Shown here: positions 5,233-9,983 of the stretch, one piece after another
Numbering within the stretch: position 1 is the first letter of the stretch
Layout: the number at the start of each line of letters is the position of its first letter
Source: Escherichia coli
Lineage (GTDB): Bacteria; Pseudomonadota; Gammaproteobacteria; Enterobacterales; Enterobacteriaceae
Reading direction: 5' to 3' (one strand)
NCBI RefSeq assembly: GCF_011045215.1
Contig: NZ_CP049201.1
DNA length: 64,000 nucleotides
Program-made: the position numbers and the translations under genes
Notes under the pieces: generated by a model
Database searches by the model: none
Told to the model about the DNA's origin: nothing
What the model saw: only the letters and a program-made list of their open reading frames with translations

Positions 5233-6525
5233 TTACCTGTTTTCCCATAATTTCAACATCGCTTTGTGCTCTTCCTTAAGCACAATATGCGAGCGTCTGG
5301 CTCGAATAAAGCTAATCGCTTCATCAACTGTTTTACAGTGTCCGTAACATAACAGCCATGCCGCCACTACCAGCGCACTGCGCGATAATCCCAATGCGCA
5401 ATGGACCAGAACGCTGCCTTGCTCTTCGCGTAATGTTTCCAGCATCGCCACGGCCTGTCGGAGCTCCCCCTCTTCCGGAACCACCAGATCCAGCATCGGT
5501 ACACAGAAATAGAGTCGATCTTTTGTCGCTCGTCCGCGAGGGAATTCAAAGGTGACATCCAGAACCGCATTCTGTGCCGGAATATGTCGTGGAAACGCCC
5601 CTAAATAAACACCAGCAGTCATTTTGCTCACCGGCTCCAGGCGACGACAAAACCAACGCATAGATAGCCACATCCCGATGCGCCAGGGCAATGTCAGCCA
5701 GTAAACGGCGGGCGGGAGTTTCCCCTGACTATCTTTCCCTGTTGTTATCGCGCCAAGCCCACCATACCCACGGCCAATAATGAGTAGCGATAATACTGGC
5801 CAACATAACCAGACTGACCACCATAACTGAACCATCATCATTAGCTCCATCAACACAATGCACGCGCACGCGCCTACGACATATGGCAGTGCTATTTTGA
5901 TTCGACGTTGATCAGGTTTCTGATAATTCCAACGACGGTCGACGGGTACCATCCAGTCAATCAACATACCTACCGCCAGCCCTGTGATGACATCAATAAA
6001 ATGATGCTGCCAGGTTGTCAGCGTCGAAATGGCGATGAGTAAAAACCATCCGCCGCAGACTTTACGCCAACTCACAGCCAGATGCTGACGAAAGTGACGC
6101 CAAAGTAGCCAGCAGAGAATAATATGCAGCGAAGGAGACTGGTTATAGGGCAGATCAAACAGTTCAAGTTGCGAAAATAGCCATCCTGTCACCCCACTCA
6201 CTTCAGGACGGATAAAACTAAACTTCAGCGGGTAGAGAAAAAAACCGCAGCAGGCCATTACCGTTGCCAGAATAAGCCGGTGGACAAGTCGGCGTTGTTC
6301 GAATGTCGAGCTACAAACGAACAGCGAAAATCCATATAAAAGATCCAGACTCCAGTAAGAAACAATAGTCCAGGGAAGAAAAGGGATCGCCGTTTCCCAA
6401 CCGAATACCTGACTGGGGATATCATGGCTGTTAAGGTCCTGAACCGCGGTGAACTGATTAAGAGATCCATAGGTGAAGAAGAAAAACGGGGCCAGCAACA
6501 ATAACCAGCCAGCGCCTTGTAGCAA
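5233..6525 (-). CDS. ynbD: Inner-membrane PAP2-like / dual-specificity phosphatase domain protein YnbD
   Basis: Multiple hydrophobic helices; C-terminal CX5R phosphatase signature [10 protein letters not shown]; ORF track start at 6624 overlaps ynbC so true start (possibly TTG near 6525) is uncertain. Confidence 0.7.
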
Positions 6526-6538
6526 TACGTTCCGACGT

Positions 6539-8296
6539 TCAGTTATCACGACGCACCGCCATCGAAACCGTAAAAATGCCCCACTCATCAATCCGTTGTG
6601 TGCATTTATCAAATCCGGCATCACGCACGAGTGAATCCATCTCCTCTTGCGAACGCACGCGCATTACCCACGGTTTACCATCTTTATGACTGGTTAACAC
6701 CCCGGCAATCAGCTCCAGTTGTGGGTGCCACGGCTGCCCGGTGTAGAGGAGAATGCCGCCCGGTTCGATGGCATTGGCAAGACCTGCGAGTGAGTTTTTT
6801 ACCTGCTCATTTCCGGGAAAAAGCTCATACAGTCCAGAGACAATCGCCAGCGTAGGCCGCGGAGTTAACGCGCTGAGTTCCTCCGGGTTAAACGCATCGC
6901 CCTGTTCAAAACGCACCCGCCCAGACATTCCCCGTTGAGCAATCATCTCTTGCCCCTGTGCAACATTTAACTCGCTGTAATCACGTAACAAAATATCGCT
7001 TACGGCAGGCTCGTTTGCCAGCGCATCCAGTACATAGCGCCCATGCCCTGCGGCAATGTCAACCACGCGGACGGCTAAACCTTTGGCGTGGAGATCGGCA
7101 ACGGCTTGTTTAATCAGTATTTGTAAATGGGTTTTGCGCTGGCGAATACCGCGCCAGCCAACACTGTTCAGGTAGATTTTGTCGATTAAGCGCCCGAATG
7201 CGTTACTACCTTGCGGTTGATTTTGATAGACATAATCCAGCGAACTGCCTGAATCAAAGCCGGTGCTCATTCCGAGATGCAGGCCCGCAGAGTGCGTCCC
7301 GAACAATTTCATCGCTTTACGCATAAAGCGATACGCCAAATCAACCGGCGATAATGGCACGGGTCCACCTGAAAGGAGCCGCCAGCGATCCGCTGATGGT
7401 CCAGTGCGGTCTTCATGCTGATAATCAAATTTTTGTGACTTGTTAGCATATAAACGACTAATAAAGCTTTGCATTTTTTCAAATGCCTGCGCCCTGTTCT
7501 CTTCACCCAACGTGTCGTGATAAAAGCCTGGCAGCAGATGCAGCTCTTTCAGAGGGCTACGTAATCTATGATAAAAATCAATCTGCGGTTGGCGATGCAC
7601 CACATAGTCATCGCCTGATATCAGAAGTTGCGTGGGGAGCGTAATCGCCGCCGCATCGCTAACAATACGTTCAGACGTTTTATAAAGATCGAGCAAGATA
7701 TTAACGGCAATCGCCCGTGTGATCAGCGGATCATTATTGAAACTCGCCACCCGTTGCCGATCGTGGGTCAAATAGCGTCCTTTCACATAGGAATTAATAA
7801 AAAACAGACCACGCAGACGATGCCATAACGCCAGCGCAGGACGTGCCAGCGGCACATACAATTTAACCTTAAAGGCCGGAGAAACCAGCACCAGCCCGCG
7901 AATTGCAGGCGCATAATCATGAACCCATGTGGCAACCAGCACTGCGCCGACGCTCTGCGCGATCACTACCACCTCTTCCAGCCCGACCTGGCTGTCGCTG
8001 GCAGCAAAACGGACAAACTCATCGACATCCCGCACTGAACGCGCAAGAGATGGGCTATAACCACGGGGCCCCGAAGTTTGTCCATGCCCTCGGGCATCCC
8101 ATGCATAAAAAGCAGTTTCTGGCATCGCCAGTTCATCAACGATATGTTGTAGACGACCAGAATGTTCATGACCGCGATGAAATAAGACGATGACCTTTTT
8201 CGCCCCTGGCTGTAAAGCGGGCCAGTGCCGATAAAACAACGCTGTATTATCACTGGTGGTAAAAAAATGTTCCCCAGGGATGCGTGAATTTTCCAT
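6539..8296 (-). CDS. ynbC: Alpha/beta-hydrolase + SAM-methyltransferase fusion protein YnbC
   Basis: 585 aa; N-terminal hydrolase region ([15 protein letters not shown] nucleophile-elbow-like), C-terminal methyltransferase motif [11 protein letters not shown]. Confidence 0.85.
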
Positions 8297-8311
8297 TTTC
8301 TCTATTTTCCT

Positions 8312-9208
8312 TCAGTAACAGCAGTAGCGAATAAAATAAAAAAATACCGGAGCGGTGAAAATTAATGAGTCAATCCTGTCAAGGAGTCCGCCATGTCCTG
8401 GTAATAGTTTTCCGCTATCTTTAACACCCACATCTCGTTTGACGGCTGACATCACTGCATCGCCGCAAAAACCACTAATACCAATTAACAAACCCGCTAA
8501 TAATGCCTGTAATGTATTTAGCGGTGTCAGCAACGGTCCAATAATCAGTGACGCAATCATGGTGGTGATTACGCCCCCCACCAGACCTTCCAGCGTTTTT
8601 CCCGGGCTGACTCTGGGGACCACTTTTCTTCTGCCGCAGGATTTCCCCCATAAATACTGTGCAATATCGTTTGACTCTGTTAACGCCAAAAGAAATAACA
8701 CCAGTAACGCCCCGCCCTGGGTATTTGTGGTTGTCAACATTAATAACCAGGCGGCATGACTCAAGGCGAAAACGGTCATTATCCAGCCCCAAAAAATGGC
8801 GCTCACGGTATGCAGAAAACCGGAGGTATCACCTACTAAAACTCGCCAGGTGGTTAATATCAGAAACCCAGCCAAAGGTATAAATAACAGAAACAGCTCA
8901 AAGCAATTAAAACCGATAAGCAAATAGTTAAGAGGAATAACCCAATATAACCAACGCGGAAAATGTACGGATATAAGCGTACAATATTCTTTCAATGCCA
9001 GAAAACTTATCAGCGCAAAAAACGTCAACGTCATCCAGCGTGGACCTGAAATCACCAGTGAAAAACAAATGACGATACCCCACCAGGTACGAATACGTAG
9101 TGTAACTTCATCCCCTTTTCTCTCCGGTAACCGCCATACCCGAAAACGGTTTATCAGCGTTGCTAAAATTAACAACGCGAAAAGTGTTGCCAGAGATTTT
9201 TCCAGCAT
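8312..9208 (-). CDS. ynbB: CDP-diglyceride synthetase-like integral membrane protein YnbB
   Basis: 298-aa polytopic membrane protein, CdsA-like C-terminal region; synteny. Confidence 0.85.
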   Translation of the reverse strand: MLEKSLATLFALLILATLINRFRVWRLPERKGDEVTLRIRTWWGIVICFSLVISGPRWMTLTFFALISFLALKEYCTLISVHFPRWLYWVIPLNYLLIGFNCFELFLLFIPLAGFLILTTWRVLVGDTSGFLHTVSAIFWGWIMTVFALSHAAWLLMLTTTNTQGGALLVLFLLALTESNDIAQYLWGKSCGRRKVVPRVSPGKTLEGLVGGVITTMIASLIIGPLLTPLNTLQALLAGLLIGISGFCGDAVMSAVKRDVGVKDSGKLLPGHGGLLDRIDSLIFTAPVFFYFIRYCCY

Positions 9209-9813
9209 TATCTTTCAGCACTCATCAGGAGCACACTCCGACAACGATTAATCGCAGTCCAGAGAAGCAGAATTGAAGCAATGCTCCATAAAAGATTATT
9301 CCATTGCATCCACTGTGGATAAATGGCAACGGCCAGCCCCCACAACCCAAATATTAACGCGCGATCGCTTTTGCCAAAAGGACCGACATAACTACGAATA
9401 CCGTTAATCGTCTGCGCGAGTAAACCGCAAAACTCAGTCAATATGGTGCAAAATAACATGAGTATTACGAGTGATGCGTTACTTTCCGGTAAAAATAAAA
9501 ACGGTAAATAGAGCGCAATATCGGAAATAACATCGCCAGTTTCATTTAAAATCGCCCCCAGACGTGTTTGCTGATTGCACTCACGCGCCAACATGCCATC
9601 CAGCGCATTGAGTGCCATACGGATAAAAAGCACGATGGGCAATAGCAAAAAGAGGATGGGTTGTGCGACCAACATCAACAGCAATCCGGTAATAAGAGAA
9701 AGCGCCAGTGCAGCAAGAGTGATGTGATTCGCTGTAACATGGTGCTTATAAAGCCAAAACATCGTCGGCCTTAACAGCGACTGAAAGAGCGGTTTTATCT
9801 GGTAGAGCGTCAT
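9208..9813 (-). CDS. ynbA: CDP-alcohol phosphatidyltransferase-family protein YnbA
   Basis: Signature D-G-x2-A-R-x8-G-x3-D-x3-D visible (NALDGMLARECNQQTRLGAILNETGDVISDIALY); start taken at MTLYQIK. Confidence 0.88.
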   Translation of the reverse strand: MTLYQIKPLFQSLLRPTMFWLYKHHVTANHITLAALALSLITGLLLMLVAQPILFLLLPIVLFIRMALNALDGMLARECNQQTRLGAILNETGDVISDIALYLPFLFLPESNASLVILMLFCTILTEFCGLLAQTINGIRSYVGPFGKSDRALIFGLWGLAVAIYPQWMQWNNLLWSIASILLLWTAINRCRSVLLMSAER

Positions 9814-9983
9814 TATCAATCCTTGATAATTCGGTTTGCGCTATGGTGCATCAATTCCCCTGACGGAGATATCGCAACACGACGCTTCATTAAAAATTCA
9901 GAATATATCAAGGTATTGGGGACTCACTGTCAGGAATGATTATCCCCAATAAATCAAGTGGTTAAAAATTATTACACTGTTAT

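Follow-up and report, generated by a model that had tools for sequence, protein, structure and literature searches.

Phospholipid metabolism in Escherichia coli K-12 is regarded as essentially closed, yet the genome holds an operon with seven lipid-chemistry catalytic domains, ynbABCD, for which no product is known. We ask here what this operon may do, using the copy found in a 64,000-nucleotide stretch of the E. coli chromosome (contig NZ_CP049201.1; the whole stretch is hereafter called the window). A preliminary description of the window had reported four co-directional genes at this place and read them as a small pathway for a phospholipid-like molecule. The genes are indeed there, ynbA to ynbD, on the minus strand at 5233-9813, in agreement with the RefSeq annotation, and the ynb open reading frames (ORFs) show 99.7% identity to other E. 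coli chromosomes. RefSeq labels their products as a CDP-alcohol phosphatidyltransferase family protein (ynbA), a phosphatidate cytidylyltransferase (ynbB), a bifunctional alpha/beta hydrolase/class I SAM-dependent methyltransferase (ynbC) and a phosphatase PAP2/dual specificity phosphatase family protein (ynbD). Our analysis identifies ynbABCD as what E. coli has kept of a conserved lipid cluster of six genes in two modules, which is mobile by horizontal transfer. The function we favor, for which belief and doubt are about evenly balanced, is a dedicated pathway leading from CDP-diacylglycerol (CDP-DAG) to a phosphatidyl-X-phosphate, followed by dephosphorylation and by transfer or release of the head group.

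The evidence for the six-gene ancestry comes from a survey of one genome per species, which gave 80 loci annotated by phmmer with the six proteins; architectures were taken from the 60 loci flanked by 6.5 kb or more on either side, which cover at least ten phyla or classes. The most frequent arrangement combines ynbA, ynbB, a PlsC-type acyltransferase gene, ynbC and ynbD (27/60 loci), followed by ynbA, ynbB and the acyltransferase only (18/60), ynbA with ynbC and ynbD (8/60), the four genes without the acyltransferase (3/60) and other architectures (4/60). The gene of a small protein is also present in at least nine of the 27 full clusters, and divergent small-protein families add 19 loci. Snodgrassella displays the complete order: ynbA, ynbB, a 214-aa PlsC-type acyltransferase, ynbC, ynbD and a 135-aa protein with two transmembrane (TM) helices. 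Besides Snodgrassella, the hosts include Enterobacterales, Pasteurellaceae, the Pseudomonas syringae group, Rhizobium, Phyllobacterium, Brucella, Variovorax, Bordetella, Chromobacterium, Neisseria, Gilliamella, Campylobacter, Sulfurospirillum, methanotrophs, Nitrosomonas and Desulfobacterales, as well as metagenome-assembled genomes of Bacteroidetes, Acidobacteria, Calditrichia and a Thermoactinomycetaceae. The acyltransferases of the cluster all keep the NHxSxxD and PEG(S/T)R motifs (56/56), and natural fusions join YnbA to YnbC (P0185, 807 aa) and YnbA to the acyltransferase (P0189, 436 aa). This conserved clustering across phyla and the two fusions, together with the domain content, give weight to the earlier idea of a lipid head-group pathway.

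Several features of individual loci were also recorded. The two-TM protein encoded 3' of ynbD in many taxa (130-150 aa; for example L004 15182-15589 and L002 14022-14420) carries a conserved C/Y-W-R-L-W-L-D motif and belongs to no Pfam family. In Vibrio fluvialis (L002), a 130-aa ORF at 10606-10998 joins the N-terminus of YnbB to the C-terminus of the acyltransferase, which is the scar of an in-frame deletion, and a resolvase gene lies directly upstream of ynbA, suggesting a mobile island. In four unrelated loci with ynbA, ynbB and the acyltransferase only (L025 12325-12864, L043 9335-10273, L051 7774-8448 and L081 6652-7362, from a Thermoactinomycetaceae, two Alphaproteobacteria and an Acidobacteria member), the acyltransferase is followed by a small membrane protein with a weak, below-threshold match to VTT/DedA (E 1.6e-4), which could be a lipid flippase partner. 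Apart from lineage-specific synteny, this VTT/DedA-like protein was the only family found to recur beside the cluster.

The E. coli operon is a reduced version of this cluster. The PlsC-type acyltransferase and the small membrane protein are both present in the syntenic clusters of Citrobacter, Hafnia and Serratia and in most other taxa. In Citrobacter, the six-gene form lies between ynbE-ydbL and azoR; in the window, azoR is adjacent to the operon and ynbE/ydbL are found at ~32778-32307, about 22.5 kb from ynbA, and these shared surroundings indicate that the two loci are orthologous. When the acyltransferase and the small protein were searched by tblastn against the whole window, nothing was found (E > 4). 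The E. coli lineage has lost both genes, that of the acyltransferase from between ynbB and ynbC and the small one from behind ynbD, and no trace of either is left; the operon is not the complete small pathway it was first taken for. The acyltransferase occurs in only 3 of 5426 complete E. coli genomes, always on plasmids. One of these, NZ_CP027341.1 of strain 2015C-3121 (L086, 5463-9565), carries a second cluster copy with ynbA, ynbB, the acyltransferase and ynbC, and at the position of ynbD a 62-aa stub followed by an IS66 element.

The surrounding segment (5000-10000) was found in 5417 of the 5426 genomes. The chromosomal operon itself is covered to at least 80% in 4280 (79%), absent from 658 and partial in ~490, internal deletions included. 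Between divergent E. coli lineages, the ratio of nonsynonymous to synonymous substitution rates (dN/dS) is 0.16 for ynbA, 0.33 for ynbB, 0.14 for ynbC and 0.13 for ynbD. The locus is thus non-core, yet under purifying selection where it is retained. Two types of natural lesion were seen: an internal deletion that joins a truncated ynbA to a truncated ynbC with ynbB gone (strain OkiPb01705, L088, 2807-4471), and an early stop that occupies codon 2 of ynbC, where the annotated start lies farther downstream (strain HCP5S3_I2, L087, 1607-3364).

YnbA (201 aa, 9208..9813, minus strand) matches the CDP-alcohol phosphatidyltransferase family PF01066 with 38.2 bits (cut-off 22). The clear DGxxAR...G...D...D motif claimed for it does not withstand inspection, because in the canonical signature D1xxD2GxxAR...GxxxD3xxxD4 both D1 and D3 are Asn (N69 and N90), with D72, G73, A76, R77, G86 and D94 retained, so that YnbA reads N69-x2-D72-G-x2-A-R-x8-G86-x3-N90-x3-D94-x3-D98. 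An exhaustive HMMER search gave ~158 clusters (50% identity) at E <= 1e-30; among the matches listed, the motif could be located in 113 of 150 representatives, and 110 of these 113 have the form N..DG..AR-x8-G...N...D...D, showing that the double Asn defines a subfamily and is not a mutation. N69, D72, N90, D94 and D98 are strictly kept across the family, as are R65, E127, R140, P145, G147, K148, D150, R151 and R190. That a modified motif is so strictly kept speaks for an active enzyme with altered metal or nucleophile chemistry rather than a pseudoenzyme.

The best relatives of YnbA in sequence are Mycobacterium tuberculosis PgsA1, a phosphatidylinositol-phosphate synthase (PIPS; 6h53, the best PDB match, E 1e-7), and archaetidylinositol-phosphate synthase (AIPS). 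They resemble YnbA in size and in having six TM helices, and they share with it the signature residues D2, G, A, R, G and D4 and, apparently, a basic cluster where the acceptor phosphate binds. In the alignment to 6h53, 'alNalDGmlAR-x8-GailNetgDvisD' stands against 'lfDmlDGamAR-x8-GavlDatcDrisD'. In PIP synthase, Mg-1 is held by D68, D71 and D89 and Mg-2 by D89 and D93, the last of which presumably acts as the base (PMC6506517); the Mg-1 ligands D68 and D89 are the two residues replaced by Asn in YnbA. R155 and R195 bind the phosphate of inositol phosphate; the invariant R151 of YnbA is one residue off the R155 column, and its invariant R190 could match R195, the alignment ending before that position. 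The column of R94, next to D4, is V95 in YnbA. YnbA further differs by a family-specific GPxGKSDR motif and by its scores against NCBIfam equivalog models, which remain far below the cut-offs for AIPS (76 bits, cut-off 180), PIPS (48 bits, cut-off 170) and pgsA (30 bits, cut-off 109). AIPS and PIPS are nevertheless the top models for 50/50 aligned family members, with PgsA next, again all far below cut-off. Judged by sequence, the nearest known chemistry of YnbA would be phosphatidyl transfer from CDP-DAG to a phosphorylated polyol, with YnbA standing outside those enzyme families. We also considered YnbA as a second PgsA, with YnbD as the phosphatidylglycerophosphate (PGP) phosphatase; this was rejected on the low pgsA score and on the failure of YnbD to rescue a pgpABC strain.

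The next gene, ynbB (298 aa, 8312..9208, minus strand), encodes a CdsA paralogue, as had been proposed: it scores 237 bits against PF01148, whereas the CdsA equivalog model gives 109 bits (cut-off 385) and matches the C-terminal half alone. YnbB therefore has the catalytic C-terminal half of CdsA in common, joined to an unrelated N-terminal half. In the literature, YnbB makes CDP-DAG in vitro and its overproduction raises the level of the glycolipid MPIase (PMC6362211; PMC7018664 summarising Sato 2019), and it is unable to replace CdsA for bulk phospholipid synthesis (PMC6362211, PMC7018664, PMC11413397 and a 2026 bioRxiv preprint). Contrary to CdsA, it is encoded in a mobile, non-core lipid cluster and is translationally coupled to ynbA, which suggests that its native job is to supply CDP-DAG to YnbA.

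The hydrolase-methyltransferase fusion reported for YnbC was confirmed. The N-terminal domain (aa 1-266, 7499..8296, minus strand) is an alpha/beta hydrolase of the monoacylglycerol-lipase/lysophospholipase type (Hydrolase_4, 229 bits), whose PDB matches are mycobacterial and human monoglyceride lipases (E 6e-15); it has the nucleophile elbow AQS115VG, and the S115, D230 and H260 triad is conserved at 95% or more in 50 homologues. The C-terminal domain (aa 267-585, 6539..7498, minus strand) is a class I S-adenosylmethionine (SAM)-dependent methyltransferase (Methyltransf_20, PF12147, 505 bits) with a mean column identity of 64% across phyla. The PDB sequence search with YnbC matched the hydrolase domain only. 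The AlphaFold2 (AF2) model of the methyltransferase domain (pLDDT 93.5) is related by Foldseek to many SAM methyltransferases with probability 1.00, starting with 3ocj, an unannotated Bordetella protein, followed by small-molecule O-, C- and N-methyltransferases. These Foldseek matches gave no specific link to lipid methyltransferases and no clue to the substrate.

YnbD was described beforehand as a PAP2/dual-specificity phosphatase membrane protein, and both halves stand, the first of them on fold and motifs. The C-terminal dual-specificity phosphatase (DSP) domain (aa 306-430, 5233..5610, minus strand) scores 94 bits against DSPc (PF00782, cut-off 33.5), and 31 aligned homologues all keep D346, C376-x5-R382 and S383. 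When the PDB was searched with the family profile, the top matches were archaeal protein tyrosine phosphatases and the PGP phosphatase PTPMT1 (3rgo, E 1.2e-13, in third place), a DSP fold that acts on the phospholipid-phosphate made by a CDP-alcohol phosphatidyltransferase. PTPMT1 differs in the basic residues of its P-loop, absent in YnbD, and YnbD does not complement the loss of PGP phosphatase in E. coli. The N-terminal half (aa ~1-200, 5926..6525, minus strand) remains under the Pfam threshold for PAP2_3 (21 bits vs 27), and in the same 31 homologues the C2 (PS132-L-H134) and C3 (S167-x6-H174-x3-D178) motifs are invariant or nearly so, C1 (KxxxxxxRP) is shrunk to (R/K)106-P107 and the Arg of C3 (SRxxxxxHxxxD) is missing. 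Taken together, fold and motifs place the domain in the PAP2 superfamily. Two more TM helices follow up to aa ~295, and the AF2 model of this membrane region has a pLDDT of 91.6.

Within this superfamily, structural comparison of the model (score, then extent of the match) ranked human sphingomyelin synthase-related protein (SMSr; two entries, 13.5 and 12.9; 189 and 188) and the yeast inositol-phosphorylceramide synthase Aur1 (12.1; 189) above the hydrolases LpxE (10.7; 143) and PgpB (two entries, 10.4 and 10.0; 148 and 146) and above acid phosphatases and LPP1 (about 9; 142-149). In both its fold and its His-His-Asp triad, the modelled YnbD membrane domain is thus structurally nearest to the sphingomyelin synthase (SMS) and inositol-phosphorylceramide synthases, that is, nearer to the transferase than to the hydrolase branch. 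Sequence identity of SMS1/2, SMSr and Aur1 to YnbD is 10-14%, and YnbD is distinguished from them by the (R/K)-P remnant of C1, the two extra TM helices and the fused DSP domain. Judging by loop charges over the whole family (positive-inside rule), the K/R-rich loops L2, L4, L6 and L8 lie in the cytoplasm, so the catalytic His-His-Asp loops are predicted to face the periplasm and the DSP domain the cytoplasm. PgpB, YbjG and LpxT have the superfamily and the periplasmic orientation in common with YnbD, which is structurally nearer to the SMS/Aur1 branch. LpxT is an example of a PAP2 enzyme that can work as a transferase in the envelope of E. coli. YnbD is the fourth PAP2 protein of E. coli: its overexpression rescues neither undecaprenyl pyrophosphate (C55-PP) nor PGP phosphatase (pgpABC) deficiency, it does not supply undecaprenyl phosphate (C55-P) or phosphatidylglycerol in vivo, and a strain without all four PAP2 enzymes is viable (PMC7413402).

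How might these activities work together? Except for that of YnbB, we infer the following steps from homology and fold, from conserved residues and topology, and from the order and fusions of the genes. A first module (YnbA, YnbB and the PlsC-type acyltransferase lost in E. coli) would make a dedicated phospholipid at the cytoplasmic face. The acyltransferase, where present, would supply phosphatidate to YnbB, which converts phosphatidate and CTP to CDP-DAG, the sole step shown experimentally (in the literature). YnbA would then pass the phosphatidyl group on to X-P, an alcohol that is anionic and probably phosphorylated, to give phosphatidyl-X-phosphate, as suggested by its position as sister group of AIPS/PIPS and by its invariant basic residues. 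The metal site of YnbA is altered, with Asn at D1 and D3. A second module (YnbC, YnbD and the small two-TM protein lost in E. coli) would process this lipid. By analogy with PTPMT1 and phosphatidylinositol-phosphate phosphatase, the cytoplasmic DSP domain of YnbD may strip the terminal phosphate, and YnbC may methylate and/or deacylate the head group or the lipid. After flipping of the lipid, the periplasmic SMS/Aur1-like domain of YnbD, with its His-His-Asp triad, could transfer the phospho-head group to an acceptor or release it, leaving diacylglycerol, as its fold, motifs and topology suggest. As to X-P, glycerol-3-phosphate is unlikely given the low pgsA score and the failed pgpABC complementation, and inositol phosphate is unsupported since no synthase gene accompanies the cluster. 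A phosphate nucleophile in YnbA, which would give an X-PP-DAG like compound I of the MPIase pathway, would be an attractive, if tentative, alternative.

A route of this type has a precedent. In Bacteroides thetaiotaomicron, BT_1523, BT_1525 and BT_1522 provide a genetically proven route from a CDP-alcohol phosphatidyltransferase through a lipid-phosphate phosphatase to an Aur1-like transferase (PMC9246714). When BT_1525 is deleted, PIP-DAG builds up. The enzyme logic of BT_1522-BT_1526 and of the eukaryotic CDS1, PIS1 and AUR1 route is common with that of the ynb cluster: a PIPS-type enzyme makes a phosphorylated phospholipid, a phosphatase dephosphorylates it, and a PAP2-fold Aur1-like enzyme transfers the phospho-head group and frees diacylglycerol (PMC9246714). 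The ynb cluster differs in that no inositol-phosphate synthase lies in or near it, its phosphatase is a DSP domain fused to the transferase rather than a PgpA-type protein, YnbA has Asn at D1 and D3, its hosts have no known ceramide acceptor, and it has as extras a CdsA paralogue, a PlsC-type acyltransferase, a lipase-methyltransferase fusion and the small two-TM protein.

A number of observations weigh against the proposed pathway. No product has been seen, and neither X nor the acceptor was identified by this analysis; among the genes beside the cluster, none that would serve to make an unusual alcohol recurs, be it for inositol-phosphate synthase or for an enzyme of sugar phosphates, and E. 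coli is not known to have a ceramide-type acceptor. The DSP P-loop, HCALGLSRS, is not of the basic type seen in lipid phosphatases, two cluster genes are missing in E. coli, and 21% of complete genomes lack an intact locus. The complementation failure of YnbD excludes PGP and C55-PP as substrates and gives no positive evidence (PMC7413402). YnbA is without two of the four metal-binding Asp (Mg-1 ligands in PIP synthase, PMC6506517) and has V95 in place of the R94 typical of inositol-phosphate users, which leaves room for a donor, an acceptor or a chemistry other than that of the PIPS model. A full-text search of the literature library used found no product for the operon and no function for YnbA, YnbC or YnbD; queries on ynbABCD as an operon, Methyltransf_20 and PF12147 returned nothing. 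The operon had been called functionally uncharacterised; this can be kept for its product and for YnbA and YnbC, but not for YnbB, a published CDP-DAG synthase, or YnbD, for which complementation has been tested.

Other functions have to be weighed against the head-group pathway. The operon could be a back-up route to the essential glycolipid MPIase, in which YnbB, possibly with YnbA, would convert CDP-DAG and GlcNAc-1-phosphate to GlcNAc-PP-DAG (compound I), the Asn-variant site of YnbA being adapted to a phosphate nucleophile that gives the pyrophosphate link. YnbB overproduction lifts MPIase about as much as CdsA does, a ynbB knockout in which Tam41p is expressed piles up M13 procoat and pOmpA precursors (PMC6362211), YnbB is described as MPIase-dedicated and cold-induced (PMC7018664, PMC11413397 and the 2026 bioRxiv preprint), and the enzyme that couples GlcNAc-phosphate to CDP-DAG has not been separated from CdsA/YnbB; two carboxylates fewer in YnbA would also lessen the repulsion of an anionic nucleophile. 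However, deletion of ynbB alone leaves MPIase unchanged (PMC6362211), and yeast Cds1p and human CDS1 also support MPIase synthesis (PMC6362211, PMC7018664), so the effect looks general for enzymes of the CdsA type. Although MPIase is an essential glycolipid, 21% of the complete E. coli genomes lack the ynb locus or carry it in broken form, and the cluster also occurs in Campylobacter, Rhizobium, Pseudomonas, methanotrophs, Bacteroidetes and Acidobacteria, whereas the MPIase trisaccharide, of the enterobacterial common antigen type, is described for Enterobacterales (PMC8609368). This function also leaves YnbC, YnbD and the acyltransferase without a role. Overall, we consider it unlikely. We place the same low confidence in the view that the E. 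coli locus is a decaying, normally silent remnant, its pathway disabled by the loss of the acyltransferase and the small protein. Of the six conserved genes, two have vanished without trace, 658 of 5426 genomes have no match and ~490 have partial loci, the promoter depends on the normally silent activator BglJ (PMC3950696), and ynbB and ynbD knockouts have no noted phenotype in standard conditions (PMC6362211, PMC7413402). Against decay stand the dN/dS values of 0.13-0.33 for all four genes, the intact catalytic residues, and acyltransferase-less clusters (ynbA with ynbC and ynbD, with or without ynbB) in Providencia, Xenorhabdus, Morganella and Phytobacter, which suggest that the acyltransferase is dispensable where housekeeping PlsC and CdsA exist. 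To go by the title of a 2023 report by Kamemoto, ynbB is also reportedly cold-induced and contributes to growth in the cold.

It is less probable still that the cluster serves phospholipid remodelling or turnover, with the YnbC lipase and the YnbD phosphatase-type domains degrading or recycling lipids and YnbA and YnbB re-activating the backbone. This would suit the closeness of the YnbC hydrolase domain to monoacylglycerol lipases, the fact that most characterised PAP2 and DSP members are hydrolases, and the occurrence of ynbC and ynbD with ynbA in loci without ynbB and the acyltransferase. But the most constant module consists of ynbA, ynbB and the acyltransferase gene, which stand by themselves at 18 of the 60 loci, and this fits synthesis better; moreover, it is hard to see what the methyltransferase, highly constrained at 64% column identity, would do in turnover, and the N-terminal domain of YnbD is nearer to the transferase branch. 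Finally, we regard it as very improbable that the YnbD phosphatase domain acts on phosphoproteins, as a membrane-tethered signalling or regulatory enzyme: its P-loop resembles that of protein dual-specificity phosphatases and most of the top PDB matches are protein phosphatases, but the domain is permanently fused to a lipid-enzyme domain, ynbD is always beside ynbC and clustered with ynbA, and the family profile has as its third-best match PTPMT1, which has this fold and dephosphorylates a lipid.

Several details of the locus bear on its expression. The ynbA stop and the ynbB start overlap by 1 nt (TAATG), a 15-nt gap with AGGA inside separates the TGA of ynbB from the ATG of ynbC, and the TGA of ynbC lies 13 nt before the RefSeq TTG start of ynbD (6525, 430 aa). 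An alternative GTG start of ynbD at 6549 would overlap ynbC by 11 nt and retains a 'TERR' N-terminus aligned with the conserved Arg-Arg of homologues; the start is ambiguous and GTG 6549 is plausible in view of this alignment, whereas the longest ORF (GTG 6624, 463 aa) is probably too long. The genes had been called overlapping, which is true of ynbA/ynbB only and, for ynbC/ynbD, depends on the start chosen. Similarly, the locus had been placed correctly while its ends, taken from the longest ORFs, need correction: ynbA starts at 9813 (ATG in RefSeq) and not 9819, and ynbD at 6525 or 6549 and not 6624. ynbABCD is a real, translationally coupled operon. A promoter/terminator consensus scan over the operon found fewer sites than in shuffled controls, giving no verdict either way on a single transcription unit. 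Going by the K-12 literature, the ynbA promoter would lie in the intergenic region between the ydbD stop and the ynbA start (9814..9983, minus strand), and the consensus scan found no sigma-70-like site above chance there. In K-12, BglJ-RcsB activates this promoter from a site centred 65-68 bp upstream of the start (PMC3950696); H-NS silencing, which the passages of that study consulted here do not show for this locus, is not claimed.

In the window, the operon is flanked by hrpA (474-4376, minus strand) and azoR (4577-5182, plus strand) on one side and by ydbD (9984-12296) on the other. The ydbD product (770 aa) is labelled a 'DUF2773 domain-containing bactofilin', with a Pfam match limited to the last 81 residues. 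ydbD and further genes occupy ~9984-32307, between ynbA and ydbL, whereas in Citrobacter ynbE-ydbL abut ynbA (L007, 9391-9913); the ~22.5 kb between ydbL and ynbA in E. coli mark the region as an insertion hot spot. A functional link to the ydbH-ynbE-ydbL lipid-transport genes was considered and set aside, as the connection is one of synteny only and the adjacency is confined to Citrobacter-type genomes.

Altogether, the genes and their domain predictions were already in databases. New here are the family-wide Asn-Asn variant of YnbA and its closeness to AIPS/PIPS, the SMS/Aur1-like character of YnbD with its topology, the descent of the operon from a mobile cluster of six genes in two modules, and the doubt that context casts on YnbB as an MPIase-dedicated enzyme. 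Genomic context suggests that this published role is a side effect, and ynbA is an obvious candidate in MPIase enzymology. The Asn found at two of the four 'invariant' Asp in a whole subfamily either calls the accepted two-metal mechanism into question or indicates that the nucleophile is a different one. In YnbD, E. coli has an SMS/Aur1-like enzyme, a type known mainly from eukaryotes and from Bacteroidetes that produce sphingolipids, and the same cluster is spread over many phyla and on plasmids. A more specific and clearly tentative possibility, which we think rather unlikely as it stands, is that the cluster is an unrecognised bacterial head-group donor system, in which the Asn-Asp-Asn-Asp YnbA would build a dedicated phosphatidyl-X lipid, with X maybe pyrophosphate-linked, the SMS/Aur1-like enzyme would move phospho-X onto a periplasmic acceptor in the envelope, and the lipase-methyltransferase would tailor the head group. 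If this is true, bacteria from E. coli to Campylobacter, Rhizobium and Pseudomonas would have a type of envelope modification that forms a class of its own and is new.

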